NCBI GenBank assembly: GCA_963743255.1
Contig: CAVUPD010000009.1
Coordinates: 310,862-374,861 of the forward strand
Source of the DNA: an uncultured Chloroflexia bacterium
GTDB lineage: Bacteria; Chloroflexota; Anaerolineae; Anaerolineales; E44-bin32
DNA length: 64,000 nt
Direction of reading: 5' to 3'
Position 1 is the first letter of the stretch, and each line of letters starts with the position of its first letter. The notes beneath the pieces were generated by a model that was not told where the DNA came from, ran no database searches, and was given only the letters and a program-made list of their open reading frames with translations. The translations under genes were made by a program, and so were the position numbers. Below are positions 4,345-52,635 of the stretch, in pieces.

Positions 4345-4420
4345 GGGGGTTGGGGCGCGAGGAGAAGCGATCAGCTATCAGCTGTCAGCAGCTGGTAATT
4401 GGCAATCTAGCCGCTAGTTG

Positions 4421-36748: not shown

Positions 36749-37341
36749 GGGCGAAACATGCCCACCACATGTATTGCGCAAACGGCGACTCTCGCCACGC
36801 TTCGCCCACACGATACCCGTGGAGGCGCCCAGACGAAAGGTCTATCATGCGCGCATCGCACAGGCATGGCGTGCTGTACGTCCTCACCGAATGATGATCA
36901 ACAACCCCGCTACCCTACGGTACCCCGCATATTCCGCGTCGCCGTAGCCCGGAGCCACCTTTCATACCGTGTAGGGGCGAAGCACCGTTCGTGCCGCGAA
37001 GCCCGGCGGCACGCCGGTGCGAGACGGCATGCTTCGCCCCTACGATGTCCGCGGGGGCACCCAGACAAGTCACCTACCCCGCGGGGCGGGGACCCGCGAT
37101 TGCGTGACCCCTACACCGATCTGCAATCACCGACCCTGAACCCAAACATGACCCCCCACGTTACGCGCCGCCCGCATTCCGGAACCCCCTTCAAGAACGT
37201 GTAGGGGCGAAGCATGCCCCCAGCTTACATTGCGCAAGCAGCGACATCAGGCATGCTTCGCCCTGCGCCTTCCGGGGACACTCCTGGACCATAGGCCTAT
37301 GCCGGACATATCGTAGGGGCGGGTTTGAAACCCGCCCCTAC
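36746..37341. repeat. Cluster of REP-like hairpins (GTAGGGGC family)
   Basis: GTAGGGGCGAA(G/A)CA..GCTTCGCCC copies at about 36746, 36971 and 37201. Palindrome GTAGGGGCGGGTTTGAAACCCGCCCCTAC at 37313..37341. Confidence 0.85.
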
Positions 37342-38011: not shown

Positions 38012-38363
38012 GGCAGGTTGAACACCAACGTCCCGGGCTTGAAACGGTGATCGACGGTGGCCTTCCCTGACGCGACGAGTACATACAGCACGTTCAGGGC
38101 GACAAACCTGTCCTTGAAGTGTCTGGTTCGGCTGAACTCCTCGAAGAGCTGCTTGGAGGTCAGGCCCTTCACCCCGCGGAATTTGTCTTCGACGTAGCTC
38201 ACCGCGTCCGCCTCTACGATGTTGAAATTGCCCGCCGCAGCATCTGCCTTCTTGAACGACATCACCAGGAAGTGCCGGTGACCCTGGAAGATGTGGTACG
38301 TCTGCCGGGCGCCCTGACCTCGCCGACGTAGCGCAGCTCCGACAGGACCTCCTTGACGTTCAT
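38008..38363 (-). CDS. Hypothetical protein (~118 aa); one frameshift near 38300
   Basis: ATG at 38363 follows GGAGG (MNVKEVLSELRYVGEV..). The rest, ..HIFQGHRHFLVMSFKK..LNVLYVLVASG.., is in ORF 38008..38379. I do not recognise a family. Confidence 0.5.
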
Positions 38364-38416
38364 GGGGACCTCCGATCAAGCGTGGACCGAGCCATGTCGC
38401 TCGGGGGGACTTGCCT

Positions 38417-38711
38417 GGGAAATGGCCTCCAGCCGGGCGGCCGACGGCTCTCCCTCACTCTACGCCCAGCCGGCAGGCAGGACAAGCATCGGGAGAATCC
38501 CGGCCCACCGGCCGAAGGTCCCCGGCATTCTTCCCGGGGGGTCAGCCGAGGGTCCTGGTGGTCTTACAGGATCGAAGGCCCCGCCGTTGGCCCCGCATCG
38601 TTGGCGGGGCCGCTCCTTGGCGGGGCGTCGTGGGCGGGGTGTCTTGGGCGGGGGCATCTTCCCATGCCGAAGGCTCTGGTGAGCTTCCAAGGCTACCGCG
38701 AGTTGTTGGGC
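38417..38711 (-). repeat. attC-like site 12 (terminal copy; distal R' core degenerate)
   Basis: + strand right end ..GGCTACCGCGAGTTGTTGGGC. The left end GGGAAATGGCCTCCAGC aligns with GCCCAACGGCCTCGAGC, but the 7-mer is lost. Confidence 0.5.
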
Positions 38712-38740
38712 GGATCAAGCGCGCAGCGCCGGGCTGGTGG

Positions 38741-39205
38741 TTATCTGTCTCTCAACTGAAGCAAGTGTCGGTATTGCCACTGTCGTTCTTTGGCTACGGC
38801 ATCATCGGCATGAGAGGGGCTGCTGGCCCTATGGACGGCCTGTACGGCATAGTTCGCAGCGCCGATGCAATGGGTGGGGACATGGGCAGTTGCCACCGCT
38901 TGACCTGCGGCCCGGGCCGCAGAGCGAGCGGCATTATCCTCTCCTACCTCGCGAGCAGCAGCATGAGATGCCAGCGAAGCCTTGCGTATCTCAGCCATCT
39001 TAAACACCCCGGTATTTATCCATGCCTGGAGTGCTTCGAGTGCATTCCGAGGGCGATGGTCTTCTGGATATTTTTCCTCAAAATAGGGCAGAACACGCTC
39101 AACACAATCAATGGCCCAGGCGCCCAGGGTCGTATGGTCGGTTCTTCCCGCAAGCGCGATCATCGACTCGTCTCTGCGTGTAACCGAGAATTCGGAGCTT
39201 GCCAT
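38741..39205 (-). CDS. Cassette 12: Imm5-like putative immunity protein (all-alpha)
   Basis: Intact 154-aa ORF. LGAWAIDCVERVLPYFEEKYPEDHRPRNALEALQAW.. and the Ala-rich helical repeats resemble the putative immunity protein family of polymorphic toxin systems (recognised from memory). Confidence 0.65.
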   Translation of the reverse strand: MASSEFSVTRRDESMIALAGRTDHTTLGAWAIDCVERVLPYFEEKYPEDHRPRNALEALQAWINTGVFKMAEIRKASLASHAAAREVGEDNAARSAARAAGQAVATAHVPTHCIGAANYAVQAVHRASSPSHADDAVAKERQWQYRHLLQLRDR

Positions 39206-39214
39206 GGGATCACC

Positions 39215-39255
39215 TTCTCACCGTCCGACGGATCAGGATCAGCGAGTTGTTGGGC
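39215..39255 (-). repeat. Orphan R''/L'' half of an attC-like site
   Basis: + strand ..GGATCAGGATCAGCGAGTTGTTGGGC matches the ORF-proximal arm only. The partner arm is missing, because the Imm5-like gene starts 10 nt away at 39205. Confidence 0.5.
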
Positions 39256-39419
39256 CGCACCCCCGCAACCGATCTGCAACCGGACTTACGATTGCCGGGA
39301 ACGCGTCTCCGTGATGTTCACGGCATTTAGCCATTGGGCCCAAGCGCACCCATACGCGTTCAAAGAGACGCATGGCGATCCGGTGCTTACAGAACCGGCG
39401 AGGCCGGTCAGATCCATGT

Positions 39420-40272
39420 TTAGGGCGGCGGCTTCTCGGTCTTCCGCCCCCGGACAAAGAGCGCACCCACCGGCGCGACCAGCATCAGGGCCGCCCCCAG
39501 GAGGGTCAACGCAAGGAAGATCTGGATCGCCTGATTCACGACGCCTGGCAGGACATCGACCGCCAGCTGCGTGCTAGCGCGTGATGAAGGTCTCTTCGCC
39601 ACCGGCAGCCGGGGGTTGGGCGGAATGCTCGAGCCAGCCGCGCGCTCCGCTCATCAGGACCAAGCCTGGAATCGCAGCCAGCAGAATGACACATCCAGGA
39701 CTGCCCAAACGCCCGAACCGATAGCTGAAGAGGGCAAGCAAGCCGAGGAGGAAAAGCGAGACTAGTCCCGAGATGGCAAGCGCCGCCCGAAGTTTGGCAT
39801 GTGTTTCGGCGCTGATGAAGCCCAGTGGGCCGATCCCCCCTTCCAGTTGTGATTGCATGCCGGGGTCGGTCATCAGGTTTGCCAGCCCATCCTCCCCGTC
39901 ATAGTAGATGGGCTCCGCCCACTGCTGGAAGAACCACAAGCGCACTTCTCTGGGGGTTTTCCCGGCGATATCCTCCGCCCGGACAACGATTCGCATCCCG
40001 GGGATGGGCTGCCATTCTCCGTTGGGCAACTCGGCGATTCTCTGCTTCACGATCCCAATGTCGCCGGCTTCATCCAACCCTCCCCCTTCGGCACTGTAGG
40101 AACTCGCCAGCGTCGTTGTCAAGAGGGCGATACCTTGCTCAGGGGTTGTGGCCAGAACCAGGATGAGCGCCAGAAAGGTGATGTTCAACACGAACAAGAG
40201 AAGAATGCCGGTGAGCCACTTCGCATCCACGTGCCAGTAGGGGCGGGGCTTGAGTTCCTTCTTTGTACCCAT
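39420..40272 (-). CDS. Cassette 11: hypothetical membrane protein; one frameshift near 39590
   Basis: ATG at 40272 follows GAGGAGG. TM helices are at the N-terminus, in the middle and at the C-terminus. ORF 39574..40521 joins ORF 39420..39602 (..EETFITR|ASTQLAVDVL..). Confidence 0.6.
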
Positions 40273-40298
40273 CGCTGGCCTCCTCGAACCGAGTGAAC

Positions 40299-40648
40299 AG
40301 CAACCCAGTGCCCTCGAGCTAGTAGGTCCCGCGTCAGGCCGCCGCGGGTCCCGCCGAAGGCCCCGCATTGTGGGTGGGGGTGATCTTCCAGGGCCGGAGC
40401 CCGCCGGAGGTCCCGCGTTCTCGGCGGGATTCGTCCCGGGGGTTCTTACCGGGATCCTGCCGATGGCCCCACGTTGTGGGCGGGGGTGATCTCCAGGGCC
40501 GGAGGCCGCCGGAGGTCCCACGTTACTGGCGGATTCGTCCGGGAGTGTGACCGGGTTCCTGCCGATGGACCCGCGTGTGTGGGCGGGGGTGATCTTCCAG
40601 GACCGGAGGTCCTGGTGATCGTCTCAGGACTTCAGCGAGTTGTCGGGC
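40299..40648 (-). repeat. attC-like site 10 (~350 nt) containing 2.5 tandem copies of a ~104-nt module
   Basis: Distal end ..CAGGACTTCAGCGAGTTGTCGGGC. The proximal end ..CAACCCAGTGCCCTCGAGCT is degenerate. Tandem units at 40359..40464, 40465..40566 and 40567..40648. Confidence 0.55.
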
Positions 40649-40665
40649 GCACGGGGCACCCGACG

Positions 40666-41403
40666 TCACAAGCCAAGCGTCTCCGCCGCCATTTGTTGAA
40701 GGTGCGCCGCATCTTCCTCGGTCACACCCGGGCCCAGATAGGGGTTGCCAACCGGCGTCCTCTGAAGGATCACCCCATAGAGTATGCAGGCTGCCAGGTA
40801 GGTGCCGGCTTCCGTTGGATGGCCATCTTGCGAGTATAGGGGCAGATCCGGCCTTTGAAGAAGGGAGCGGGCAAAGGCCAGGCCCGCTGGCGCCACCTCC
40901 GCAGCAAGCTGGGTACCGACCGCTTCGTACGCACTCGCCAGGGTTGCCGTCGTAACTCCCCCGGCGACACTATCGGGGCGTTCCCAGGTCATGAGAAGAA
41001 CCGTCTTGGCGCCGCTTTCGCGAATCTCGATGTCGAATTCGCGGCTGAACTTGTAGAAGCTCTGCCAGTCCGTAACTGGCCGCTGACTTTGCTCCTGCAA
41101 GACGACGAAGGTCCAGCCCTCCTCGCGGATCTTGCGGGCCGCCGCACCGTCTTTCCAGTGATCCTCAAGCGTGTAACCGCCCGCAGCGATCCGCGAAACC
41201 CGGCTGGAGGGCGCCAGACCCTTGAATTCCTTGTCGATCCCACCGTTGAGAAACGTGTAGCTGTTCCCAATGAAGAGGACCCGTGTTGGATCTGTCTCTT
41301 CAGAACCACTTCTCCCTAAGCCACCGCCCGTGCACACGGCTAGCAAGAGCAAGGTCGTGCAAGTCCACAGGATGATGCGCTGGAGTTGCCTAACAGTCAT
41401 CAT
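40666..41403 (-). CDS. Cassette 10: SGNH/GDSL-type hydrolase lipoprotein
   Basis: Intact ORF with signal/lipobox LLLLAVCTGG, block I FIGNSYT and block V DGHPT. Confidence 0.75.
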   Translation of the reverse strand: MMTVRQLQRIILWTCTTLLLLAVCTGGGLGRSGSEETDPTRVLFIGNSYTFLNGGIDKEFKGLAPSSRVSRIAAGGYTLEDHWKDGAAARKIREEGWTFVVLQEQSQRPVTDWQSFYKFSREFDIEIRESGAKTVLLMTWERPDSVAGGVTTATLASAYEAVGTQLAAEVAPAGLAFARSLLQRPDLPLYSQDGHPTEAGTYLAACILYGVILQRTPVGNPYLGPGVTEEDAAHLQQMAAETLGL

Positions 41404-41464
41404 CTTCAGAACTGCCACCCACAAAAGTGGAACCGAGCCAGTCAGCCGAAGGCATCGTGGAATA

Positions 41465-41771
41465 GCCCCACCGGCCTCGAGCTATCGAAGACCGTTCGTC
41501 CCGGATGGCTTCACCGGGATCCTGCGCACGTTGCAGGACAAGGTCCCGCGTTGCTACCGGGAAGCCGTCCGGCGGAGGCCGGCCTCCTAACTCTACGGCA
41601 TGCTGAAGGGCCAGACAAGGTCCAAGTTCGGCCCAGCCCGCCGGGGTAGCCGAAGGCCGCCGGAGATCCTGCCGTCGGCCGTTCGCCCCGATGTGCTTAC
41701 CGGGGTCCCGCGCACTGTGCGGGGCGTTCTGGGCGCATGTGCTCTTTGGCGAGATAAGCGAGTCGCTGGGC
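41465..41771 (-). repeat. attC-like site 9 (307 nt, both cores slightly degenerate)
   Basis: + strand GCCCCACCGGCCTCGAGCTATCGAAGACCG... ...GAGATAAGCGAGTCGCTGGGC. Confidence 0.55.
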
Positions 41772-41778
41772 GTCCCCC

Positions 41779-42192
41779 TTAGGTAAGTCGGTCCCCTGGA
41801 GAAAGGACCCAGGCACTCGCGTGACGGGTAAATCCGATGCGCGGATAGTAGTCTGTGGCTGCAGGGGCGGGAGAGCAGAATGATCGTGCACCTGGGGCCA
41901 AGCTGCTCCCTGGTGTTACGGATCAATTCGCGCCCAATCCCCCTCCCGTTGAACGCCCTGATCGACCGCTAGGTCAGACAGGTAGCAGCAATACGTGAAA
42001 TCGGTGACAGACCGGGCGACACCAACCAGACGGTCATTCTGCCAGGCGGTGACCACCAGATCGGCATGACGGAGCATTCCAGCAATGCAATCTGGATCGT
42101 CAACGGGCCTACGGTCGGCGAGCGAAGAACGACGGAGGACGTCTATGAACTGCTCAGGGGAAACGGTCTCCCCCGACCCTGTAGTCGGTCAT
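41779..42192 (-). CDS. Cassette 9: GNAT N-acetyltransferase; one frameshift near 41880
   Basis: ATG at 42192 follows GAGGAGGAG. The acetyl-CoA motif is VQREGIGRELI. The C-terminal [21 protein letters not shown].. is in the adjacent frame. Confidence 0.75.
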
Positions 42193-42211
42193 GGCTCCTC
42201 CTCATCGGTGC

Positions 42212-42546
42212 GCCTAACAGCCTCGAGCTTTCGAAGATCCTGCGATCGTTGCAGGACAATGTCACACGTTGTCTCAGGGAAGCAGCCGGGGGGAGCGGGC
42301 ATTCGCCCGCCAGAGTTGCAGCATGCACGCAGGGCCGAGCAAGGTGCCCCGAATCCACCCCCGTCGCGTCGGCCGTAGGCCCTGGTGGTCTTGCAGGATC
42401 GAAGACCGCCGAAGTCCCGCCGTAGGCCGTTCGCTCCGGATGTCCTTACCGGGGTCCCGCGTCGTTGGCGGGGCGTCTTGGGCAGGGGTGGCTTCCCAGG
42501 GGCGGATGCCCTGGGGATCGTCCAGGACTTCAGCGAATTGTTGGGC
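42212..42546 (-). repeat. attC-like site 8 (335 nt)
   Basis: + strand GCCTAACAGCCTCGAGCTTTCGAAGATCC... ...GGGATCGTCCAGGACTTCAGCGAATTGTTGGGC. The R' core lies 19 nt upstream (minus) of the cassette 9 start. Confidence 0.65.
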
Positions 42547-42582
42547 ACCCAGGTGCTTCATTGAGGTGTTGGGGAGCGCTGC

Positions 42583-43244
42583 CTAGCTTTGCTTGCCAGG
42601 TAGCATCTCTCTGAGGAAGCTGAGCGTGCGTTCCCACGCCAGAGTCGCCGCTTCCTGGTTGAATGCGTCCTACTCGGTCACGCTCGAAAAACCAGTGTCC
42701 TGTCCCTTTGTAGCGATAGAACGTGACCGGTCGGCCGGCTGCTCGCAAGGCGTCTTCCAGCGATTTCACGTCAGCTTCGCGACTCGAATTCGTCTGCCTC
42801 AGCAAAGTGGCCAAGGTATTCAGCCTTCGAAGGTCCATAGTCCTCGGGGTTGGTGCCATAGAAGACTACGACCGCGCGAATCCGATCCGGATCGGCCACC
42901 GAGAGATCAACCGCGTAGGAGGCTCCAAGGGAAAACCCAATGACTGCGAGCCCTTGGCCGCTCACGGAGACACTGTCCGTCAAGAAGCCGACTGCGTCAC
43001 CGATATCAGCCTTGGCTTGCTTACTGTCAAGTGTCTTGACCAGCCTCTTGGCATCCTCGATGGTGACAGCAACCTTGCCATGATACAGATCCGGGGCGAA
43101 CGCGACAAAACCATTCTTGGCCAGCTGAGCGCTGAAGGCCTTGATGGTTTCGTTGAGCCCCCACCAGGGGTGCAAGACGAGCACGCCAGGCCCAGTGCCA
43201 GAAGGCGGAACTGCGAGAAAGCCCTGCGGTTGAGGATGTCTCAT
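42583..43244 (-). CDS. Cassette 8: dienelactone hydrolase family protein; 2 frameshifts
   Basis: GVLVLHPWWGLN, the nucleophile GFSLGA and ..GTGHWFFE.. The tail AFNQEAATLAWERTLSFLREMLPGKQS is in a third frame. Confidence 0.7.
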
Positions 43245-43368
43245 ATGCACTCCTACCTGGGGTGAGTGTAACAGAGCCATCAGGAGACGGCTTTCCCCCG
43301 GTGCGTGACCTCGGAAGGGAGAAGTCTTGAATGTTGTGGTGATCGGGGCGGCGAGAGCACCCCTGGCC

Positions 43369-43670
43369 GCCCAACGGCACTGAGCTATCGAAGACCGTTC
43401 GTCCCGGATGTCTTCACCGGGATCCTGCGCTCGTTGCGGGACCACGTCCCAGGTTCCTTGTGGGAAGCTGTCCGGCGGAGGCGGGCGAGGCTACTTCCGC
43501 TCCAGCCACCGCCGGGGACCAAGGCAAGCCAGCCACCGATTCGGCGGGGTGGCCAAGTCAACTACTTGAAAACTCACCTTGGCGGGCGGCGAGCGACCAC
43601 CTCTCCGCCGCGCTCGCCCAGTCGGCCGGAGGTCCTGGTGATTTCCCAGGGCCTCGGCGAGTTGTTGGGC
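43369..43670 (-). repeat. attC-like site 7 (302 nt)
   Basis: + strand GCCCAACGGCACTGAGCTATCGAAGACCG... ...GGCCTCGGCGAGTTGTTGGGC. Confidence 0.6.
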
Positions 43671-43695
43671 GCCTGGCAAGGCACGTCCGAGACAA

Positions 43696-44250
43696 TCAGT
43701 TGAGCCGAAGGTACGCCTCTCCCCCGAAGAGCGCCTCGTACTTGAGCACGTAGTCGGCGGGCTCGCCCTCGACCTCGAAGATGAGGTATCCCGCCTTGGT
43801 GGCGCCACCGAAGAACTCACTTCCCTCGAACATCCCGGGGACTCCGGCAATCAGGAGGCGGGGATTGTGTGCGATGCCGGATGTGTCCACCAGGGAAAAC
43901 TCAAGCCCGCTGAGACGACAACTTGATTCGGGCGACAGGTTGCAGGAGGCGGCAATGCCAACAAGGATGTAATCCGCGGCGGGCTCGGGTGTGGGATTCC
44001 AGAGGCTACCGTCCCGGACGATGGCATCGGCTGGGAAGACCAGGTCCGTGATCGACAGCGACATGTCGTCGATCTGAACGGTATTGCCGAGCGGCGCGGG
44101 GTTGAACCGAGAAGCGCCGAGCGCGGGCAGAGTGGATTCGGCAGGCACCGCTCCGGCCCCTGAAGGCTGAGCCACGACGACTGGAGCAGTCCGTCCGCAT
44201 GCGAGAACTGATGCTCCGAGAGCGGCAATTGCAGTGGCGACTACCTTCAT
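43696..44250 (-). CDS. Cassette 7: lipoprotein, DUF4352-like (tentative)
   Basis: Intact 184-aa ORF with signal plus lipobox MKVVATAIAALGASVLAC and a beta-rich remainder. Confidence 0.7.
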   Translation of the reverse strand: MKVVATAIAALGASVLACGRTAPVVVAQPSGAGAVPAESTLPALGASRFNPAPLGNTVQIDDMSLSITDLVFPADAIVRDGSLWNPTPEPAADYILVGIAASCNLSPESSCRLSGLEFSLVDTSGIAHNPRLLIAGVPGMFEGSEFFGGATKAGYLIFEVEGEPADYVLKYEALFGGEAYLRLN

Positions 44251-44322
44251 AATGGACTCCTCGGCCGCCCTTCTTGGTGTCCCATCTTGTGGAGGGCGGT
44301 CGCAGTCAGCGACGATCCAGGC

Positions 44323-44422
44323 GCCCGACGGCTTCGAGCTATCGAAGACCGTTCGTCCCGGATGTCTTCACCGGGATCCTGCGCCGGTTGCAGGACATGG
44401 CCCCACATTGTTAGTGTTAGGC
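44323..44422 (-). repeat. attC-like site 6 (short variant made mostly of the inserted module)
   Basis: + strand GCCCGACGGCTTCGAGCTATCGAAGACCGTTCGTCCCGGATGTCTTCACCGGGATCCTGCGCCGGTTGCAGGAC..CACATTGTTAGTGTTAGGC. Confidence 0.5.
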
Positions 44423-44497
44423 CACCGGCCAACAGCACGGCGGCCAGGTGTTACCGTGTCCACACCGCCACAACCGAGACCTGTTGTTGCGTCCCTG

Positions 44498-44941
44498 TTA
44501 CGGATGTCCGAACTCCGGCTTTCGAGGCGCTCGGGGGCCGACGCCGGAGAGGTGCACATCCTGCCACTCCCCACGCGCCTGAAGCACTTCCGCCCGCTCC
44601 TGCGCGTCGTGCAGCTCTTCGATCATCCCGAGGTACTCGCCCGCGTCGGTCCAGATGGGCCGGATATACTCGTACAACATCCTTCCCCGGTAGTTGACCC
44701 AGCCTTCATAGTGGTCCAGGACTCCTGTCCGGATGTCCTCGATCAGCTTCTGCACGGCGGCGTCCGACTCATGCGGGTGGCAGCTGAAGACTGTGGACCC
44801 CAGGCGTTCGGAAGGCTCCACCTGGAGCATGAGTCCGGCGAGCCGATTGAATAAGACAATTCGATTGTCCTCGTCGATGAGGACCAGGCCGATGCACAAT
44901 TGATCGGCGACCGCCCTCAGCACCCCGGATGTTTCGAGCAT
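44498..44941 (-). CDS. Cassette 6: stand-alone PAS-domain protein
   Basis: MLETSGVLRAVADQLCIGLVLIDEDNRIVLFNRLAGLML.. is a typical PAS N-terminal pattern. The 3' end may run into repeat sequence. Confidence 0.6.
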   Translation of the reverse strand: MLETSGVLRAVADQLCIGLVLIDEDNRIVLFNRLAGLMLQVEPSERLGSTVFSCHPHESDAAVQKLIEDIRTGVLDHYEGWVNYRGRMLYEYIRPIWTDAGEYLGMIEELHDAQERAEVLQARGEWQDVHLSGVGPRAPRKPEFGHP

Positions 44942-45068
44942 CAATGGCCTCGCTTTTCACCGCGCCAATAGTCCCTACTGTAGCTCAGCGCCGCGCTTAG
45001 CGCCTCTGCTGCCAGTAGATCAGCCGGCTACGTCGGGCTGTTCTCGGCGAGGCGAGTAGCCCTCGGCG

Positions 45069-45436
45069 GCCCAACGGCCTCAAGCAGTCGAAGACCGTTC
45101 GTCCCGGATGTCTTCACCGGGATCCTGCGCTTGTTGCAGGACAAGGTCCCACGTTGTTAGTGGGAAGCTGCCCGGCGGAAGCGGGCAGGCTCTCTCCAAC
45201 TCTACGCCGGGCCACAAGGCAGAGCAAGCATCCGCTAAGGCCAAGCCCACCGGCCGAAGGTCCCCGGCGTTCTTCCCGGGGGGTCAGTCGAAGATCCTGG
45301 TGACTTTCCAGGGTCGGAGGCCGCCGGAGGTCCCGTTCTTGGCGGGATTCGCCCCGGGAGTCTTTACCGGGATCCTGCTGAAGGCCCCGCGCAGTAGGCG
45401 GGGGTGATCGTCCAGGACTTCAGCGATTCGTCAGGC
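45069..45436 (-). repeat. attC-like site 5 (368 nt, with inserted hairpin modules)
   Basis: + strand GCCCAACGGCCTCAAGCAGTCGAAGACCG... ...GGGGTGATCGTCCAGGACTTCAGCGATTCGTCAGGC. It ends 8 nt from the cassette 5 stop codon. Confidence 0.6.
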
Positions 45437-45443
45437 CGCTGCC

Positions 45444-46080
45444 CTAACCCCGCACGTACCTGAGATGGGTGGCGGCGGGAGTATCGAGAGTGCTGTGGAT
45501 CCGAAAGCCCGGTACAGGTTCGCGAAGGTTTTCGAACAGGCGTCTCCCGCCGGCGAACAGGATCGGCACCAAGGATACCTCAAGCTCGTCGATGACACCG
45601 AGGTTCAGGTATTGCTGGATCACGTCCGCGCCACCCGCAATGCGAATGTCTTTGCCGGCCGCGGATTGCCTGGCCTGAGCGAGCGCTATCTCCGGGCCAC
45701 CGTTGACGAAGTGGAAAGTGGTCCCGCCAGGACGGACCCAGGCTTCACGCCTCTCGTGTGTGAGCACGTATACGGGAGTGTGAAACGGTGCTTCCTCCGG
45801 CCAACCACGCTCGCCACCCTCGAACATGCGCTTGCCCATAATGCTGGCACCGATGCGCTCCGTAGTGCGCCGAAGCATGTCGTTCACCGGGCCGGTCTCT
45901 CCTCCGGGGCCGAGCTTGAGGTTCTTGCGGAAGTATTCCTGGTTGAGATCCAACCCATCAGCGCGCCCCACTTAGCGCCCCAATCTTTGTATTCGGGGCT
46001 ATCCCAATGCTCCAAGGTCATCCCTTCCGGTGCCATGTACCCATCAAGGCTAAGCCGATGTTTACAAAGATCTTGCTCAC
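45444..46080 (-). CDS. Cassette 5: dihydrofolate-reductase-family (RibD C-terminal domain) protein; about 2 frameshifts
   Basis: VSKIFVNIGL / SLDGYMAPEG N-terminus (GTG at 46080 after GGAGAGGAGA). ..DIRIAGGADVIQQYLNLGVIDELEVSLVPILFAGG.. in ORF 45444..45971. Confidence 0.7.
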
Positions 46081-46106
46081 TATTCTTGTCTCCTCTCCTC
46101 ACAGCT

Positions 46107-46284
46107 GCCTAACGGCCTCGAGCAGTCGAAGATCCTGCGCCTGTTGCAGGACGAATTCCCGCCGAAGGATGGCGGGGAGTATCGGGCGGGTGGATACTAC
46201 AAGCAGCTGCACGGAGTCGCCGTGCTGCTGGTCTCGTGTTCAACCTCGGTAACCGACTCTGCACTGTCAACCGCGAGTAACGCC
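46107..46284 (-). repeat. attC-like site 4 (R' arm conserved, R'' arm degenerate)
   Basis: + strand starts GCCTAACGGCCTCGAGCAGTCGAAGATCCTGCGC. The distal end ..CAACCGCGAGTAACGCC only loosely matches ..CAGCGAGTTGTTAGGC. Confidence 0.5.
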
Positions 46285-46298
46285 TGACGCTTATCCCG

Positions 46299-47114
46299 TC
46301 ACCACACGAATGCTACGCCGCGCTTGCCCAGGATGTAGTCGTCAAACACCACCTTGCCGGCTTGTCCGCCATACCGAGACACACGTGCAGCGGCAGCAAG
46401 TGCTCCTCGCGGGGGTGACAGTAGCGTGCGGAGGGCGCCTTCTCCCATTCGATCAGGCGCTGATCCCGTTCGGCCTGGGGCATGGGCCCGACGCAGGTCT
46501 CGATCAGCCAGTCCTGAAAGGCGTCATTGGCCGGATCGGGCACATTGAACCCTTGCCAGGCGAAGGCCCGCAGGTTGTGGAACGAGAACCCGGATCCGAT
46601 CACCAGGATGTTCTCCTGCATCAGCTCACTCAGCGCTTTGCCAAGGGCAAGATGCGCGCCAGGGTCAAGGCCGCGCAACGAGCGAGAGTTGAAGCGAGGG
46701 AATGTCGGCTTCGAGGGTACATCAGCTTCAGCGGGATGAACAGACCATGATCGAATCCGCGCTGAGGATCGATCCGAGCCGAAATGCCGCTCTTGCGCCA
46801 ACAATGCGGCGATTCTGTCTGCAAGCTCGGGGCTGCCGGGCGCCGGGTAGGTAATGTCGTACGCTTCCTCGGGGAAACCGTAGTAGTCATAGAACATCGG
46901 AGGGCTGTATGCACCCAACAGGGTTGCCGCGTCTTTCTTCCCAATGGGCGCTGATGACCAGGATGGCTTCCGGCCTTCTGAGTTGCGATGGAAGCCCCAA
47001 CATGAAGTCGACCATCGCTTGATGGCTTACGTCCCCGAGGATGGGCAAGGGACCGCCGCCATGCGAGAGATAGACGACCTGGGCCCCTTCCTCCGTGCTG
47101 GTTTCTTTCGTCAC
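46299..47114 (-). CDS. Cassette 4: class III extradiol dioxygenase (LigB / 4,5-DOPA-dioxygenase-like); about 3 frameshifts
   Basis: VVYLSHGGGPLPILGD, ILVISAHWE, YDYYGFP, ILVIGSGFSFHN, CHPREEHLLPLHV over ORFs 46887..47114, 46630..46944 and 46313..46918. Tail ..GKVVFDDYILGKRGVAFVW is in another frame. Confidence 0.7.
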
Positions 47115-47176
47115 TGACCCAACCTCCGTTAAGTCTCTCCCCCCGCCCTGGCGTGTGGTGACACGCCGGTGCTCCC

Positions 47177-47261
47177 GCCGAAGAGCCTCGAGATTGGCAG
47201 TCCCGCTTTAGCTCCGCCGAAGACCGTCGTATCTGTCCAGCGCTTCAGTTAGTAGTTCGGC
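47177..47261 (-). repeat. Degenerate attC-like site 3
   Basis: + strand GCCGAAGAGCCTCGAGA ... GCGCTTCAGTTAGTAGTTCGGC aligns with the conserved arms, but the core 7-mers are mutated. Confidence 0.4.
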
Positions 47262-47345
47262 CGTTCTCGTTCTGCGCGATTGCCGCGGGGCCGTAAAGGA
47301 CCAGCATTCGGCCTGGAAGGGCAACCACCGTGGATTGCAGCTGGG

Positions 47346-48517
47346 TTATCTGTAATAAACCGCAGAGAAGCAGCCGAAATTCGGCGGGATGTTGGACACG
47401 CATTGGTCGGACACGGCGAGGAGCACCCGTGCGTTTCCCCTCCCTAGAATCACACACTCCAGGTCCTGGCAGACATCATACGAAGTCTCCCCGCCCACCT
47501 GCAAGACCGTCCAGTCGTTCGTCGGTCCCGGCTTCCGATAGAACTCCAAGAATCCATCCTTGCTCACGCTGGAGGGCATGAAGTAGTCATAGAAGTCGTA
47601 GTCTGTCCCGACATTGGCGTGGTAGATCGCGTGCAGCCGGGAACCCGCGGGAAGGGGCAAGCCGAGATCCAGCTCCACGTGGAGCGCCAGATAATCGGCG
47701 GGCAGCTTGATTTCCTTCAACTGGTTGATCGAGGACAACTCCTCATTGATCTCCTGCACTCCGGAGATGTAGGTCCCGCCGCCGCCAGGAGAATAGACAT
47801 TCCCGGTCAGCCGGATGTGGAAACGAAGCAGATAGTTGCCGTCTTGCGCCAGGATGATATCGCCCTGCGCCTGGTCGATTTTGAAGGTGCCCGATGGATC
47901 GGATTGCTCGTCGAGATCCGTTTCGTCGAACGTAAAGTGATTGGCCGGAATGCCCTCGAAATCCACCTGATCGATGAATTGGGCGCCCAAGACGGAATAC
48001 TTCGGATAGCCCTCCCGCATATCCGCCGCACGCAGAAAGTAAGAGTTCTAAATTGCTGGGATCAGGTTCGAGCGAGACGAGCCAGAAGTCCTGATTGTAG
48101 TTTTTCTCGTAGAGCACGCCGTCGATCAAGTACTCGTCGGGCCGATGTCCATACTGAGATTTTTACCAGGTGATATGCACCCAAGGGGTCCTTGATGAAA
48201 CCAATGCTGTCACCGGTCTCGATGACTTCCCCGCCGCCGGTGGTCCTATTTACCCTGGTCAGAATGAAGCTGTCCAGCTGGCGGTTGTCTCCGAGCGCGG
48301 CAGCGTCGAAGACGGGTTGCCCAGGCGTCGACGTCGGCGTAGCGGTTGCGGATGGTGCCGGAAGGGGCGTGCCTGATGGCGCCGCCGTCCGTGTAGCCGT
48401 TGCAGCCGGGGGCGAAAGAAGGGCTTCCGTCGGCGTGGCTGCGACTGTGCCCGAACTACTGCACCCTGCCAATAGCATGCTGGCCGAGAGAGACAGGCCG
48501 ACCAGGGTCTTGATCAT
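47346..48517 (-). CDS. Cassette 3: hypothetical lipoprotein; about 2 frameshifts
   Basis: MIKTLVGLSLSASMLLAGCSSS lipobox (ORF 48062..48517), continuing through ORFs 47743..48129 and 47346..48020. No family recognised. Confidence 0.6.
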
Positions 48518-48586
48518 CTCATGCCCTCCATAAGTACTCTAGGTTTGCCGGTCGAGACGGCTTCCACCCTCGCCGGCGGAGGCGTG

Positions 48587-48743
48587 GCCCAACGGCCTCG
48601 AGCTATCGAAGATCCCGCGGTTGTGGCGGGAAGCTGCCCGGCGGAAGCGGGCAGATTTACCAGGATTGTGCGCCCTGCAGGCGGGCCGAGCAAGCTGCAA
48701 TCAAGGCCCAGCCCGACGGGTCAGCTTCAGCGAGTTGTTAGGC
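48587..48743 (-). repeat. attC-like site 2 (157 nt)
   Basis: + strand GCCCAACGGCCTCGAGCT ... GGGTCAGCTTCAGCGAGTTGTTAGGC. Same core as site 1, plus a 26-nt hairpin inserted in the R' arm. Confidence 0.7.
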
Positions 48744-48760
48744 CGCCCACCAGTCACGAC

Positions 48761-50418
48761 TTACTCGGCGTGGAAACGACAATGCGTCGCGTGTTCTGTT
48801 GTGGCGATCCATATGTCTTCTGGTGAGGCGATCGCGACTGCTTCCACGGGATCGCTGTTGGTGACTGCAGGAGGCAACAACGGCAAGCCGTCGCGGCTGT
48901 CGTAGATCCTCCAAGTCGAAGGTTGATCCGCAGGCAGCCATGGCAAGAAGTGATACAGAACAGGGACATAGGCTTCGGCCGCTACCCAAACGGACCCATC
49001 GGCCGCAAGGGCAAGTCCTCTGGCGCCGTCGGTGAACGCGCCGGCTGTGGACTCCAGATCGTAGATGGTCAAGTCTCCGGAAGAAGGTTGATAGCGGGCG
49101 AGGCCGTCGTATCCGGCCATCCAAAGCGTTCCGTCAGGTGCGAAGACCAATTGATCAGCGGATTCGAACGGGGGGCCGCCCGCGAAGCGAAGGGACTCTG
49201 GAGATGACTGGTCAATGCGGACTACATTGCCGAGGAAGGGAGCCACCCATGGAGTGCCGTCAGGGGAGACGGCCACCGCGCTGATGATGTCGGAGGATGG
49301 GAGTGATGCCCAGGATCGGGTTCGGGGATTGAAACGTGACACGCCTCCGTACGTGGCAAACCACACCTCACCGCTTGGGGCGACGGCGATGTCGTACACG
49401 CTATCATTGACCAATCCGCCGGCGGAGGATACGGAAAACCATGTCTCGCCGTCAAACTTCGAGGCTCCGCCTTCAGTGGCGAACCAGACTTCGCCAGAGG
49501 GCAAGGGTACAATTCGGCGGACTTGGTCGTTGATGAGGCCGTTCGAGGTCCGAATGGGTAGCCATTCCGTTTGGCCGGGCCGGAGCAAGCGGAGCCCATC
49601 ATTGAAGGTCGATACCCAGACTGAGCCGTCCGATGCGACTGCGATATCCGTGATGTCGTAGCGGTTGGCGCTCCCTAGCCGGCAAGGATTCGCATACCGG
49701 GGAAGGAGGACGCGGTGTGATGGTAGGGATGGTGGGTAGTTGTTGGAATCCGAAGGCGAAGGTGTTGCCGGAGGAGCGGACGCCCACCGTCGGCAGCGAC
49801 GGGAAAGTAGCCTGGTAGCCTGCAGGCGTGTCAGGACGGATCTCGAATACCTCGTCCGGGCAGCCCGGCAGCCAGACGTGGAGAGAGGATTCGCCTCTCC
49901 AGTCCGAAGGGTAGCCATTGCCTCCCCCGTTCACGCGGAACGCGTGATCTCCAGGGAGAGGTGGCTCCCCGTCGTCCCGGGTGCCGTTGGCGTTCTGGTC
50001 GACCCAAGCTACTCCTGTGGCGCTCCAGACGCAATCGGGCGGGAACCCCCCGGTGATCGCCGCGATTGGCATCCCGCCATAGCGGATCTGGAACACGAGG
50101 ATCCGGACAAGCCAGGCAGCCAGACAGAGCAGAGGAACCGCAAGGGGCAAGAACCACCAGCGAAAGCGGTGGCGAGGTCCTGGAACAGCCTGTCCGGTGC
50201 ATGCCTGTGTGGTCGGAGGCTGAGAGACATATGCATTGCCAAGGCTCGCCTGGCCGCGTCCGCGACAAGGGGGTCTTCGTCGCGTAGTGCAGGCCTCCAG
50301 GGCTACCTTTGCCTCGGCAGAGATGCGAGGTGCAACGACGCAGCTCCTCACACGCGTCATAGCGAGCCGCCTGACGACCGCTCCTTATCTTCTTGAGCAA
50401 CTTACTCTCGTCGGGCAC
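48761..50418 (-). CDS. Cassette 2: TM-anchored beta-propeller repeat protein (two-component-regulator-propeller-like); about 2-3 frameshifts; start uncertain
   Basis: Repeats ..DIAVASDGSVWVST.., ..SGEVWFATEGG.., ..SGEVWFATYGG.., ..DGTLWMAGYDG.. in ORF 48761..49918. N-terminal helical and TM parts are in ORFs 49599..50360 and 49831..50496. Confidence 0.65.
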
Positions 50419-50453
50419 GGCAATTCCTACTTGCGGGTATCCTGGCCAGGGCG

Positions 50454-50584
50454 GCCTAACGGGCCTCGAGCTAAGCTGCCCGGCGGAAGCGGGCAACTCT
50501 CCCCCACTCTACGCCCGGCCGGCAGGCGCTTCAAGCATCCCTGAATGCCCTGCCCGCCGGGTCAGCTTCAGCGAGTTGTTAGGC
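50454..50584 (-). repeat. attC-like site 1 (131 nt, best-preserved copy)
   Basis: Minus strand GCCTAAC-AACTC-GCTGAAGCTGACCCGGCGG ... CCGCCGGGCAGCTTAGC-TCGAGGCCC-GTTAGGC. Pairing is 7-bp R box, asymmetric spacer, then 3+6+8 bp stems interrupted by two single-base bulges on one arm. Confidence 0.75.
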
Positions 50585-51148
50585 ATCGGCCTTAACGAGC
50601 GCACGCTGCCGCGGATAATGAGCGGATAGACAACTGACCATACGAGCGAGAATATGATGGCTGCGAAGGTGGCCTTCTCCGCCGCGTCCGCCCAGGGGGA
50701 GACTTGCTCCACGGCCTTCTTCCTAGAGGCGACCTCCTTGTCAGTGTCGTCCACGTCAAGTATGGAAAGCGTCTCGGCAATTGTTGGGTGGGATGAAGCC
50801 GTTGCGAGGAAGGCTCTGATGGCATGCTGCTTCATGATGTAGTAGACGGTGTCTTTGGCAGTGACGTCTCCCAGGAGCCAGTGAGCCACCAGGCCGAGGA
50901 CGGCCGCGATGACCCCATGGAAGGACAAGGAGGAAGAGAAAGATCCCGTCGAATCTGCGTCTGGCGACGGCCTCAGCCAGATCCCGGATATTGAGAAGAG
51001 CGAAACCGGAGATTGCTACAAACCAGACCAGTCGTGTAGCTGTTCCCTTGTTGATCTCGGCAAATACACCGAAATCGCGGGAGAGTCCGTCGGCGAACTC
51101 CCTGATCGTTGCGTGTGCGTAGTCGGTCGTGTTGCGCGGCTGAGCCAT
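50509..51148 (-). CDS. Cassette 1: hypothetical membrane protein (about 4 TM); one frameshift near 50930
   Basis: MAQPRNTTDY.. (ORF 50756..51214) joins SFHGVIAAVLGLVAHW.. (ORF 50509..50928). The tail PNNSLKLT.. is a translation of the attC, so the true stop may be earlier. Confidence 0.55.
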
Positions 51149-51291
51149 TGTGACCCTCTTGTGACTGATGGAGCGCAGGAACGCGCGTTGTGAACCCAGG
51201 CCGATGCCTAACATGCAATTCTACATCTCCTCCCCCCAGCTCCCCCGCCGATGCGGTATCATCAACCCAGCCCGCCCCCCCGGAGGACGAT

Positions 51292-52635
51292 GTGCCCAAG
51301 ACCGAGAAGCCCGCCGACGAGATCGCCCGCATCCTCGAATCGGCCCGGCGCCTGGGCGTCGAGCTCAACGAGGACGAGGCGCTGCAGTGGCTGACAGCTA
51401 TGGCCGCCGGACCCGGCGGCGGGGACGTGGTCGTCGACATGCGCGCCGGGGTGTTCGGCCACCGGGTCACGATGCTCGACTTCTCCCCCGAGGAGCTGGC
51501 CTACTTCCGCCGCGTCGGCCAACTGGTCGAGTTCCAGGACGAGCCGGGCGTGGTCGAAACCGCCCTGGCGCTCTCCGGCTCGGCCGCCCAATCGAAGATC
51601 CAGTCCTACCCGGGCGACTGCGACTTTTTCGAGCGGGTCAACATCCGCACGGCCACGCGCCCCGAATGCATCGCCATCCTCTCGCGGTTGATCCGCGACA
51701 AAGCCCTCCAGACAGAGAAGGGCGCCACGCACCAGTTGATCGAGGTCAAATTCGGCTCGTTCCCGGCCGGGGTCGTCCGCGCCGGCCAGACGCTCAAACC
51801 CGGCAGCCCCATCAGTTGGACCCCGGCCGAGATCCGGGCCGGTAAGATCGAGCTCCAATCGTCCGACGGCGCGCCGCTCACGATCAACTGGGACCAGGCG
51901 GCGCAAGATCCAGGATGGACCAAACTCGACTGGGTGGTCGCCGACCCGCTGCGTGGACAGCTTTCCAACGCCACCAACATGCTCGACGTCACCTGGGAGG
52001 CTCCCGATGGAACGATCACGCCGCTCGACGGGTACCTCGATCCGTACTTCCAGGAGGTGTACCTCGAAGCCGGGTCGATCCCGATCTTCTCCAAGCTGGC
52101 CAAGCACGTCTCGGCCGACGCGCTCGATGAATACGTCGCCCAGCTGCAGAAAGAGGTCCACAAGTACCTGGGCAAGGACCTGAATTACGGCAAGGCCGCC
52201 AAGCGCATGTACAACATCTTCCGCCTCACCGGGCGCTACGAGGAGGCGGCCTTCATCCGCGAACTGTTCGACGAGCCGGCCACCGTCCTGTATCAGGTGT
52301 GGTCGCTGATCCGCACGCTCGACGACACGCTCGTCCCCGGCTCGAGCATCCCGCTCGAGGCGATCCAGCGCCAGGCCGACGTGCTGATCGCCGAGGTCCG
52401 CGACGTTCTCGAGGGGACGCAGGAGATCGAGATCGTCCGCCGGCTTGAGCGGCTGCGCGATACGCTCGGCGACGAAGCCGGCCGGCTGGCCTGGACGACG
52501 CAGGCCGAAGCCGCCCGCGGCGAGGTGATCAACCTGGTCAACAACTTCTTCCACAGCAAGCTGACCGGCCATCCGGCCATCCGCGTGTACATCGACGAAC
52601 AGCAGCATCCCTGGAGGGCGCGATGGGCGGACTGA
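51292..52635 (+). CDS. Pol-beta-fold nucleotidyltransferase, cGAS/OAS/CD-NTase-like active-site pattern (tentative)
   Basis: Intact ORF with LSGSAAQSKIQSYPGDCDFFERV (G[GS]..DxD), later KLDWVVAD, and a long helical C-terminal half. GTG at 51292 follows GGAGGA. The ORF is open from 51190. Confidence 0.6.
   Translation: MPKTEKPADEIARILESARRLGVELNEDEALQWLTAMAAGPGGGDVVVDMRAGVFGHRVTMLDFSPEELAYFRRVGQLVEFQDEPGVVETALALSGSAAQSKIQSYPGDCDFFERVNIRTATRPECIAILSRLIRDKALQTEKGATHQLIEVKFGSFPAGVVRAGQTLKPGSPISWTPAEIRAGKIELQSSDGAPLTINWDQAAQDPGWTKLDWVVADPLRGQLSNATNMLDVTWEAPDGTITPLDGYLDPYFQEVYLEAGSIPIFSKLAKHVSADALDEYVAQLQKEVHKYLGKDLNYGKAAKRMYNIFRLTGRYEEAAFIRELFDEPATVLYQVWSLIRTLDDTLVPGSSIPLEAIQRQADVLIAEVRDVLEGTQEIEIVRRLERLRDTLGDEAGRLAWTTQAEAARGEVINLVNNFFHSKLTGHPAIRVYIDEQQHPWRARWAD

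Follow-up and report, generated by a model that had tools for sequence, protein, structure and literature searches.

A cluster of integron-type gene cassettes without its own integrase at a strain-variable site in an Anaerolineales chromosome

Gene content of the array

The window (the whole stretch of 64,000 nucleotides that was analyzed) contains, from 38417 to 51212, about 12 short, mutually unrelated genes, all on the minus strand and spaced by a repeat family confined to one strand (Table 1). ORF maps and Pfam scans agree on this run of genes, which a preliminary description made from the sequence alone had placed at 38.4-51.2 kb. The Pfam families represented are a Reg_prop propeller, LigB, RibD_C, PAS_10, DLH, a weak GNAT, DUF4886, and Imm5_like; the membrane proteins and lipoproteins of the array have no Pfam match. 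As had also been described, the cassette DNA is less GC-rich than its surroundings, with a GC content of 0.59-0.64 in the array versus 0.65-0.70 in the flanks (0.619 versus 0.669 by another measure). For the motif GCCYAAC/GTTRGGC, the window has 25 copies, compared with 14.7 expected, and 17 of the 25 fall in the array, which makes up 20% of the window. Frameshifts in the cassette ORFs are assembly errors rather than decay. The assembly is prone to indels, which may have distorted individual attC sites as well.

Some of the cassette genes recur in other arrays. The PAS cassette is also found in a metagenome array (L166), 92% identical in amino acids and, over 603 nt, 88.6% identical in nucleotides; the homology begins at the upstream R' core and stops past the stop codon, and the neighbors differ. 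The site that follows this cassette in L166, the counterpart of E6, is an intact 131-nt attC. Cassette 11 is 61-83% identical by tblastn to positions 4381-5231 of locus L245 from a related genome, and an Imm5-like homologue, 51% identical and followed by an attC, is present in an Anaerolineae MAG (L066).

No integrase or other tyrosine recombinase lies in the window, as the preliminary description had stated: tblastn with four IntI proteins yielded neither a match nor a fragment. Thus, the array is a CALIN (cluster of attC sites lacking an integron integrase).

Table 1. Cassettes, attC sites, and borders of the array, in order from the upstream junction (positions in the window; R1, covariance model of the attC family)
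Feature	Position	Strand	Evidence and remarks
Flanking core gene, conserved 440-aa Anaerolineales protein	51292..52635	+	89-92% identical to orthologues
Upstream junction, GTAGAAT-TGCAT-G|TTAGGC	51206..51224	-	candidate attI-like or secondary (attG-type) insertion site
Cassette 1 ORF, membrane protein across apparent frameshift	50594..51146	-	no Pfam match
E1, canonical complete attC, 131 nt	50454..50584	-	R1 116.3 bits, E=6e-28, full length; DNA fold closes R box, z=-2.6 to -3.5
Cassette 2 ORF, Reg_prop beta-propeller, three reading frames	48761..50418	-	PF07494, E=1.5e-16
E2, canonical attC, 157 nt, one extra mini-hairpin in 3' arm	48587..48743	-	R1 63.6 bits, E=2e-14, over 48612-48743; R' core GTTGGGC at 48587-48593
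Cassette 3 ORF, lipoprotein, three reading frames	47346..48517	-	no Pfam match
E3, degenerate attC remnant	47177..47262 (about)	-	weak R1, 12.4 bits; both arms attC-like by reading
Cassette 4 ORF, LigB-family dioxygenase	46299..47114	-	PF02900, E=4.5e-11
E4, attC with good 3' arm (…CTCGAGGCCGTTAGGC), 5' arm degenerate	46107..46290 (about)	-	R1 13.7 bits on 46107-46152; repeat family D9
Cassette 5 ORF, RibD_C / DHFR-like reductase	45444..46069	-	PF01872, E=5e-8
E5, long-type attC, 371 nt: outer arms, mini-hairpin modules, conserved inner core	45069..45439	-	inner core 45172-45253, R1 32.4 bits, E=2.5e-6; modules M1-M5
Cassette 6 ORF, PAS protein	44498..44941	-	PF13596
E6, hybrid/truncated attC: R'' core GCCTAAC joined directly to long-type 3' arm	44323..44422	-	module M1 at 0 mismatches
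Cassette 7 ORF, lipoprotein	43696..44250	-	no Pfam match
E7, long-type attC, 302 nt	43369..43670	-	both cores; weak R1 matches over arms and core
Cassette 8 ORF, dienelactone hydrolase	42584..43244	-	PF01738, E=1.3e-25
E8, long-type attC, 335 nt	42212..42546	-	both cores present
Cassette 9 ORF, GNAT-like	41790..42191	-	PF00583, E=0.002, below family cut-off
E9, long-type attC, 308 nt, cores degenerate	41466..41773	-	inner core 41569-41644, R1 29.7 bits, E=1.2e-5
Cassette 10 ORF, DUF4886 / SGNH-like hydrolase	40666..41424	-	PF16227, E=5e-7
E10, long-type attC, 341 nt, degenerate 3' core	40305..40645	-	repeat families D2, D5; interior of three tandem units, about 105 nt each
Cassette 11 ORF, membrane protein, also in L245 array (related genome)	39420..40272	-	
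E11, attC 5' half only (GCCCAACAACTCGCTGA…)	39225..39255	-	R1 11.6 bits
Cassette 12 ORF, Imm5-like immunity protein	38741..39205	-	PF21805, E=2e-43
E12, last long-type attC, array end; 5' arm and inner core, without 3' core	38417..38711	-	R1 25.1 bits, E=1.9e-4, on 38417-38533
Flanking core gene, conserved 118-aa protein	38008..38379	-	85% identical to L246 gene

The repeats are attC sites of a family linked to IntI

Membership of the repeats in the attC class rests on R1, a family-specific covariance model built from 59 metagenomic sites, none of them from the window. With filters off, R1 finds significant matches in E1, E2, E5, E9, and E12 (116, 64, 32, 30, and 25 bits, respectively). At E<0.01, every match in the window is on the minus strand and inside the array, as had been expected of an attC model; the sole plus-strand match is the reverse of E1 (17.7 bits, E=0.015). 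Among 100 loci fetched by a non-specific 15-mer (744 kb), 3 were matched at E<=0.01.

Structure and boundaries agree with this assignment. In the alignment of the attC hairpins, pairing holds in 93.6% of the cells, and 13 of the 24 pairs carry compensatory changes; covariation scores 0.243 versus 0.100 in shuffles, none of 500 of which reaches the observed value, and slid controls give at most 0.09. On the top strand, the bulged bases are G at position 16 and A at position 23, with a 6-bp stem between them. Both the positions and the spacing agree with the published rule for attC, whose extrahelical bases are at 16 and 23/24 and lie 6 bp apart (PMC5027507). On the bottom strand, the first extrahelical base is C where G is usual, and position 23 is T. 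The earlier assignment of the plus strand as the bottom strand, with C for G at the first extrahelical base, was correct, and E1 has exactly the geometry that had been claimed for it: a 7-bp R box, a spacer of 5 versus 9 nt, 3 bp, a bulge, 6 bp, a second bulge, and 8 bp. In addition, among 66 informative pairs of neighboring sites of the family, the TTRRRY end is complementary to the following site's 5' core in 51 and to that of its own site in 15 (p=1e-5), the signature of a cassette boundary.

Only E1 and E2 are canonical. The remaining sites are modular variants of 300-371 nt, truncated, or degenerate, and the preliminary description, which had placed an imperfect inverted repeat in nearly every gap, was too generous; it overstated how intact the sites are. 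Five of the elements (300-371 nt) are composites made of strings of mini-hairpins and lie far above the published attC range of 57-141 bp (PMC5027507). The R box stays closed in the minimum-energy fold of E7 and E8, and its closure costs about 10 kcal/mol in E5, E9, and E10.

In six other loci, one of them from an Anaerolineae MAG, the same attC family adjoins genuine integron integrases. TIGR02249 'integron integrase' (cut-off 265) matches ORFs in L132, L160, L183, and L214 at 403-443 bits. R1 sites lie upstream of, and divergent from, intI in L132, L160, L183, and L250, and likewise in L253, whose IntI is labelled 'Anaerolineae bacterium' by NCBI. These loci link the family to IntI.

A strain-variable insertion site

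The array is bordered by two core genes. One, which encodes the 118-aa protein, borders the hot spot in all alleles. The other, which sits where intI would be, encodes a conserved hypothetical protein of 440 residues with 5927 homologues found; it has no Pfam match and, by tblastn with IntI proteins, is not a recombinase. In L246-L249 the same two genes flank an empty site with a spacer of 164 nt, and L245, L251, and L252 carry differing arrays there, with 1, 6, and 3 R1 matches, respectively. Altogether, the hot spot holds four distinct arrays and one empty lineage among close relatives. The array of the window has only the membrane-protein cassette in common with the other three. Across the four filled alleles, array GC is 0.61-0.65 versus 0.67-0.685 in the flanks.

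The divergent core gene starts 80 nt from the upstream junction, whose GTAGAAT-N5-GTTRGGC motif is also present in the three other filled alleles. The empty allele reads GTAGAAT-CTGAT-GCTGGGC, with GCT rather than GTT at the presumed crossover, which fits ancestral or secondary emptiness alike. In the related genomes, the polymorphism of presence/absence and of content is bounded at the GTTRGGC core, as the preliminary description had predicted. Cassette-level polymorphism thus occurs at exactly this site. Together with R1, the IntI linkage, the covariation, and the boundary signature, it supports the earlier reading of the locus: an array of about 12 cassettes that is genuinely of the integron type, without its own integrase, at a strain-variable hot spot of an Anaerolineales (Chloroflexota) chromosome.

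Origin of the array and relation to known systems

How the array arose can be stated with good but not complete confidence: it is a CALIN in an Anaerolineales chromosome whose cassettes were most likely inserted in trans at a resident GTT-containing site. Each cassette comprises a single ORF that lacks a promoter, with an attC site behind it. Where a copy is well preserved, the window's plus strand is the bottom, recombinogenic strand and folds into a hairpin that has an R box of 7 bp (RYYYAAC/GTTRRRY), an unpaired spacer, an L box and stem of 3 plus 6 bp broken by two flipped-out bases (C at 16 and T at 23), and a variable terminal structure. An integron integrase of the clade that adjoins this attC family elsewhere would cleave the 3' core between G and TT, inserting and excising cassettes as units. 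Insertion in trans is most likely because neither intI nor a remnant of it is present at the site in five alleles; the integrase may be encoded elsewhere in the genome or may have been acquired transiently. The array lies in the 164-nt-class spacer between the two divergent core genes; the resident GTAGAAT-N5-G|TTRGGC is its putative entry point, and attC x attC recombination would later have added and removed cassettes. The attC identity of the sites, the linkage of their family to IntI, the cassette-level polymorphism at this spot, and the lack of intI in the window are demonstrated, whereas the action in trans and the secondary-site origin are inferred, as is any remaining ability of this copy to be mobilized; with two of about 12 sites intact and several truncated, much of it may be immobile.

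Possible, although clearly less probable, is that the array is an inert fossil, its attC-derived sites mostly past recombination and the differences among strains due to homologous recombination of the flanks rather than to an ongoing integrase. Of the roughly 12 sites, ten are of the long type, truncated, or degenerate; two of them (E6 and E11) consist of half a site, implying deletions not made by an integrase; and the window has no intI. However, the two intact sites are those nearest the junction, the expected arrival end of new cassettes, and indel errors of the assembly may inflate the apparent decay. Furthermore, genomes that are 89-92% identical in the flanking protein show four different arrays and an empty site, which implies fast turnover.

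It is improbable that the locus once held a complete chromosomal integron whose intI was deleted or split off by rearrangement, with no growth at a secondary site. It is accepted that CALINs can form by loss of intI or by rearrangement (PMC4889954), the GTTRGGC junction core after a conserved 7-mer resembles a fixed attI-type site, and complete integrons with the same attC family occur in Anaerolineae. Yet the 440-aa core gene begins about 80 nt from the junction, the expected place of intI, in five alleles including the empty one, in which the core genes are 164 nt apart, and tblastn revealed no fragment of intI in the window. Finally, the idea that the repeats are ordinary REP- or MITE-type palindromes unrelated to integrons, suggested by GC-rich imperfect palindromes in the gaps and long forms that are strings of small hairpins, is effectively refuted by the IntI linkage, the cassette-boundary signature, the bulges at 16 and 23, and the confinement of the attC-like repeats to one strand and one locus in the window, whose real REP-like family (GTAGGGGCGAAGCATGC) is dispersed and in both orientations.

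An element of this kind is already known, and the array is a natural example of it that is unusually well documented. Its novelty is only moderate because integrons in Chloroflexi are on record, having been reported in 2016 (PMC4889954). Integrases of Anaerolineae MAGs are also already named as integron integrases by NCBI, and the rarity in Chloroflexota suggested by the preliminary description was overstated.

Like the CALINs described by Cury et al. (2016, PMC4889954), the array has several attC sites on one strand, spaced by less than 4 kb, unrelated ORFs that lack promoters, no neighboring intI, and, as in 95% of CALINs, no intI pseudogene. It differs in that many sites are far beyond the described length range and in that its insertion point is visible, since sister genomes have other arrays, or in one lineage none, at the same place in the chromosome. 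With sedentary chromosomal integrons, such as the Vibrio cholerae superintegron (VCR), it shares a chromosomal location, a homogeneous attC family, non-resistance cargo, GC below that of the host, and high strain-to-strain turnover, but it has no adjoining intI, attI, or Pc platform, its host belongs to the Anaerolineales rather than the proteobacteria, and the first extrahelical base is C instead of G.

Insertion at attG sites (SALIN; Loot et al., bioRxiv 10.1101/2022.09.11.507474) likewise has an integrase in trans insert cassettes at GTT sites of the genome (GWT consensus) that belong to no integron platform, as we infer here, and small CALINs have been proposed to arise in this way. Whereas attG sites were described as numerous and weakly specific, one site here is reused across several genomes, holds arrays of at least 12 kb, and has a full GTTRGGC core, closer to an attC/attI R box. 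With the attC of aadA7 and of mobile integrons (Nivina et al. 2016, PMC5027507), the sites share RYYYAAC/GTTRRRY cores, a 5-nt 5' spacer, and bottom-strand extrahelical bases at 16 and 23 with a 6-bp stem between them and T at 23. They are distinguished by C rather than G at 16, a 3' spacer of 8-9 rather than 5-6 nt, lengths of 131-371 rather than 57-141 nt, and a branched, modular terminal structure.

The cassette array and its attC family

Between 38.4 and 51.2 kb the genes are short and unrelated to one another, and every plausible one lies on the minus strand, as the preliminary description had it. Pfam upholds most of the labels given there: a Reg_prop propeller, LigB, RibD_C, PAS_10, dienelactone hydrolase, a weak GNAT, DUF4886, and Imm5_like. 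The lower GC content is also confirmed, ~0.62 inside the array and ~0.67 in the flanks. The gaps are indeed filled by one repeat family, which, read on the minus strand, has a 5' end of GCCYAAC-AAYTC-GCTGAAG and a 3' end of CTCGAGGCC-GTTRGGC. The cores GCCYAAC/GTTRGGC are observed 25 times (14.7 expected), and 17 copies lie inside the array region. Ribosomal protein L11 and the 440-residue protein encoded next to the array place the window in the Anaerolineales, the named homologues being labelled "Anaerolineales bacterium".

The hairpin proposed for these repeats (7-bp R box, 5 nt, 3 bp, bulge, 6 bp, bulge, 8 bp) was tested on an alignment of 59 diverse metagenomic sites, none of them from the window. 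Among these relatives, paired cells make up 93.6%, and 13 of 24 pairs show compensatory changes. The covariation score is 0.243 versus 0.100 in shuffled alignments (none of 500 as high) and at most 0.09 in slid controls. The bulged bases, G16 and A23 of the top strand and thus C16 and T23 of the bottom strand, are at least 90% conserved across the family. In published attC sites, the extrahelical bases are at 16 (usually G) and at 23/24 (a conserved T), have a required spacing of 6 bp, and sit on the arm that faces the bottom-strand AAC triplet (PMC5027507). With bulges at 16 and 23 and a 6-bp stem between them, the geometry of the family is therefore canonical, as anticipated; C in place of G at position 16 is the sole departure in this comparison. 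The two elements nearest the 51.2-kb junction, E1 and E2, align over their full length to the family model, with its R box, unpaired spacer in the centre, L box, and two bulged bases.

A covariance model, R1, was built from the same alignment without the window and run on the window with filters off. It finds five significant sites (Table) and about seven weak ones, all on the same strand within 12.8 kb; in the rest of the 64-kb window there is no match at E<0.05. The only plus-strand match is the reverse of E1, at 17.7 bits. A 15-mer, AACAAYTCGCTGAAG, proved too unspecific as a probe, since its 120 loci were mostly chance matches, and was reused as a specificity control. In 100 of these loci (744 kb), R1 matches only three: L017 from a "Ca. 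Eisenbacteria" MAG, L066 from an Anaerolineae MAG, and, weakly, L050. In the L017 contig (Ca. Eisenbacteria RBG_16_71_46, MFFQ01000036.1), an array of the same attC family begins directly behind selD, a gene that has an in-frame TGA here. Unless this contig has been mis-binned, the family crosses phyla.

Dispersed palindromes of the REP/BIME type can be dismissed, since apart from the weak reverse match to E1 the family occupies one locus and one strand in 64 kb. The window does contain a separate REP-like family (GTAGGGGCGAAGCATGC … GCATGCTTCGCCCCTAC), which is intergenic, occurs in both orientations, and gives 13 matches where 0.16 are expected. This dispersed family behaves as an ordinary REP and gives the attC family a point of comparison within the window. 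Rfam, which holds no attC family, has a tRNA gene as its sole gathering-level match in the window.

Table. Positions of array elements, neighbouring features, and side observations in related loci. E numbers denote candidate attC sites counted from the 51.2-kb end; L numbers denote retrieved loci.
Feature	Locus	Position	Strand	R1 match
Cassette array	window	38417-51212	-	
E1	window	50454-50584	-	50454-50584; 116 bits, E 6e-28
E2	window	48587-48743	-	48612-48743; 64 bits, E 2e-14
E5	window	45069-45439	-	45172-45253; 32 bits, E 2.5e-6
E6 (PAS cassette)	window	44323-44422	-	
E7	window	43369-43670	-	
E8	window	42212-42546	-	
E9	window	41466-41773	-	41569-41644; 30 bits, E 1.2e-5
E10	window	40305-40645	-	
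E11	window	39225-39255	-	
E12	window	38417-38711	-	38417-38533; 25 bits, E 1.9e-4
Gene for 118-aa protein	window	38008-38379	-	
Gene for 440-aa protein	window	51292-52635	+	
Class II aldolase gene	window	37352-38011		
REP-like family	window	8956-9234; 36745-37263; 56022-56049	both	
tRNA gene	window	12887-12960	-	
Core genes with frame switches	window	32778-33512; 34194-35038; 54431-55028; 61698-62392; others		
Array after selD	L017	1-6000		
Alternative array	L251	1-7600		
Alternative array	L252	1-9990		
Two attC sites converging on intI	L214	396-2552		
IntI-like fragments	L132	4923-5375		
Reverse transcriptase gene	L253	8139-9722		

Site lengths and cassette boundaries

Exact inverted cores (RYYYAAC…GTTRRRY) are found in E1, E2, E7, and E8. 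The 5' core of E5 reads GCCTGAC, the cores of E9 and E10 are degenerate, and one end is missing in E6, E11, and E12. Only E1 and E2 are canonical among the sites of the window. Described attC sites measure 57-141 bp (PMC5027507), whereas those of the window family reach 371 nt: E1 (131 nt) is the only window site within the published range, E2 has 157 nt, and E5, E7, E8, E9, and E10 have 302-371 nt. These long sites retain a conserved inner core as well as the outer arms; both arms carry strings of mini-hairpins with 5-bp stems, and E10 contains three tandem units of ~105 nt each. DNA folding closes the R box of E7 and E8 at minimum energy; closing that of E5, E9, or E10 costs ~10 kcal/mol. 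As the minimum-energy fold of E5 leaves its R box open, we make no claim of function for the long sites.

A 20-mer from the 3' arm retrieves relatives on at least 120 metagenome contigs. Among the matches listed, many contigs have two to six copies on the same strand at intervals of 0.7-1.4 kb, and pairing of 5' with 3' arms yields at least 228 elements in discrete length classes (90, 100, 130, 156, about 200, and 285-368 nt). Similar long sites are also present in metagenomic arrays and are therefore characteristic of the family, not peculiar to this genome.

Integron integrases cross over at G|TT, so that the terminal TTRRRY of each site is part of the following cassette and is expected to pair with the 5' core of that cassette. 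Across the family, 66 informative neighbour pairs among the matches listed favour this boundary pairing over the alternative by 51 to 15 (p=1e-5); in the window alone it is seen at three of five informative junctions, which is not significant. The PAS cassette of the window matches one in a metagenome array, L166, with 88.6% identity over 603 nt; its neighbours there are different, and the homology begins at the upstream R' core and stops just past the stop codon. The attC of this cassette is intact (131 nt) in L166; in the window its R'' is joined to a long-type 3' arm, indicating an internal deletion.

Most cassette ORFs contain apparent frameshifts. The same density is seen in the flanks, where, compared with their orthologues, core genes change reading frame, among them rplA (ribosomal protein L1) and the genes for a luciferase-like oxidoreductase and a GntR regulator. 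Cassette decay was therefore rejected as the cause, and the cassette frameshifts are no evidence of it. The assembly seems to be indel-prone, which makes frameshifts anywhere in the window unreliable; in cassettes from long-read MAGs, frameshifts should not be taken for pseudogenes.

Integron integrases and the chromosomal site

Outside the window, R1 sites flank intI genes positive for TIGR02249 ("integron integrase") in six loci (L132, L160, L183, L214, L250, and L253). ORFs in L132, L160, L183, and L214 score 403-443 bits, with a cut-off of 265, and contain the IntI-specific insertion. In all but L214, the R1 sites are on the upstream side of intI, in divergent orientation. L253 is a chromosomal contig whose IntI is named "Anaerolineae bacterium" at NCBI. 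The closest IntI clade is 91-98% identical to the L160 protein. In L214, two strong attC sites just downstream of the intI 3' end converge on the gene, an arrangement that could reflect a second array, an inversion, or an assembly join. In L132, repeated fragments resembling the C-terminal part of IntI follow just downstream of the intact intI. The first gene past the attI junction of the complete L253 integron encodes a reverse transcriptase (RVT_1) of 527 residues and may belong to a group II intron within the array.

No integrase had been noticed in the window, and this is borne out: tblastn with four IntI proteins gives no match in the 64 kb, which include 38 kb on one side of the array and 13 kb on the other, and the divergent neighbour encodes a conserved hypothetical protein of 440 residues that is not a recombinase.

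The array occupies the spacer between the core genes for this protein and for a 118-residue protein. The contents of this spacer differ among close relatives. In four JGI contigs (L246-L249; 440-residue protein 89% identical) it is empty, and the core genes are 164 nt apart. Three other relatives, each with 92% identity in the same protein, carry different fillings: a 6.5-kb block with one strong attC in L245, which has only the membrane-protein cassette in common with the window; at least 7.5 kb with six attC sites in L251, including SLFN_AlbA_2, Mrr_cat, and PD40; and at least 10 kb with three attC sites in L252, including a methyltransferase, HEPN_AbiU2, and ABC transporter genes. Together with the window, there are four different arrays and one empty site among near relatives. 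The defence-like cargo of L251 and L252 (SLFN_AlbA_2, Mrr_cat, HEPN_AbiU2) is in line with the anti-phage systems that the title of a bioRxiv report places in chromosomal integron cassettes. A class II aldolase gene beside the spacer is present in the window and L245 and absent from L246-L249; this is a second indel, unrelated to the array.

The junction GTAGAAT-N5-G|TTRGGC is common to every filled allele. At the homologous position the empty alleles have GTAGAATCTGATGCTGGGC, that is, GTAGAAT-CTGAT-GCTGGGC with GCT and not GTT; the change could have gone in either direction. The junction weakly resembles the attI junctions of related integrons: an (A/G)GAATC-N3-4-GTTAGGC look is shared by L132 and L183 and absent from L160, L250, and L253. 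By sequence likeness, the possibility that the junction might mimic attI is a weak lead. No σ70-type promoter is predicted to read into cassette 1; a -10-like TAGAAT is present.

Origin of the array and relation to known integrons

Together, the attC structure, the R1 matches, the link to IntI, the boundary signature, and the locus polymorphism support the original proposal of an integron-type cassette array without an integrase. The array has at least two same-strand attC sites at a distance below 4 kb and no intI close by, as in a CALIN (a cluster of attC sites without an integron integrase), and the adjacent divergent intI of a complete integron is missing from the window. The region is thus very probably a CALIN composed of genuine integron cassettes.

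How such an array would have formed is less certain. Of the possible routes, the somewhat favoured one is growth at a secondary, core-like chromosomal site by an integrase acting in trans. The same route has been put forward for SALINs and small CALINs and shown to operate at attG sites (bioRxiv 10.1101/2022.09.11.507474). Alternatively, an intI gene may once have stood beside the array and then been lost. This is improbable: none of the five alleles contains intI or a remnant of it, and the short distance between the core genes in the empty allele points in the same direction, both arguing for secondary-site growth with a trans-acting integrase. The position of the two intact sites, E1 and E2, nearest the junction fits recent arrival at that end, although it does not prove it. 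A broader and more tentative suggestion is that this Anaerolineales lineage keeps an integrase-less "landing pad" between the two divergent core genes, a fixed GTAGAAT-N5-G|TTRGGC reused by a trans-encoded integrase. The locus would then resemble a sedentary chromosomal integron lacking its platform, with an attC family that includes giant modular sites of 300-370 nt.

The rarity claimed for such an array in this phylum was overstated. Integrons in Chloroflexi were reported in 2016, in the paper that defined CALINs (PMC4889954), and NCBI annotations include integron integrases in Anaerolineae and Thermoflexia MAGs. Published taxon-specific attC models cover 11 taxa, Chloroflexi not among them (PMC8352920). 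Less ordinary are the repeated use of a chromosomal site that has no integrase and whose empty allele can be observed, the family-wide C for G at extrahelical position 16, and the very long modular attC variants.

Defined along with its cognate integrase clade, this abundant sediment attC family constitutes a test system for asking whether C can stand in for the usual flipped-out G, whether branched sites of 300-370 nt can recombine, and whether a core-like chromosomal site can serve as a surrogate attI. If sites of 300-370 nt recombine, the known size range of attC would be roughly doubled. They exceed the default attC size limit of IntegronFinder, 200 nt, and arrays of this kind would be under-called by standard limits. 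Genome surveys have suggested, and experiments in E. coli have shown, that cassette arrays can grow away from any integrase. The present locus offers a natural, datable case in an uncultured, non-proteobacterial lineage, with an empty site, four fillings, and a shared cassette that can be aligned at base resolution.
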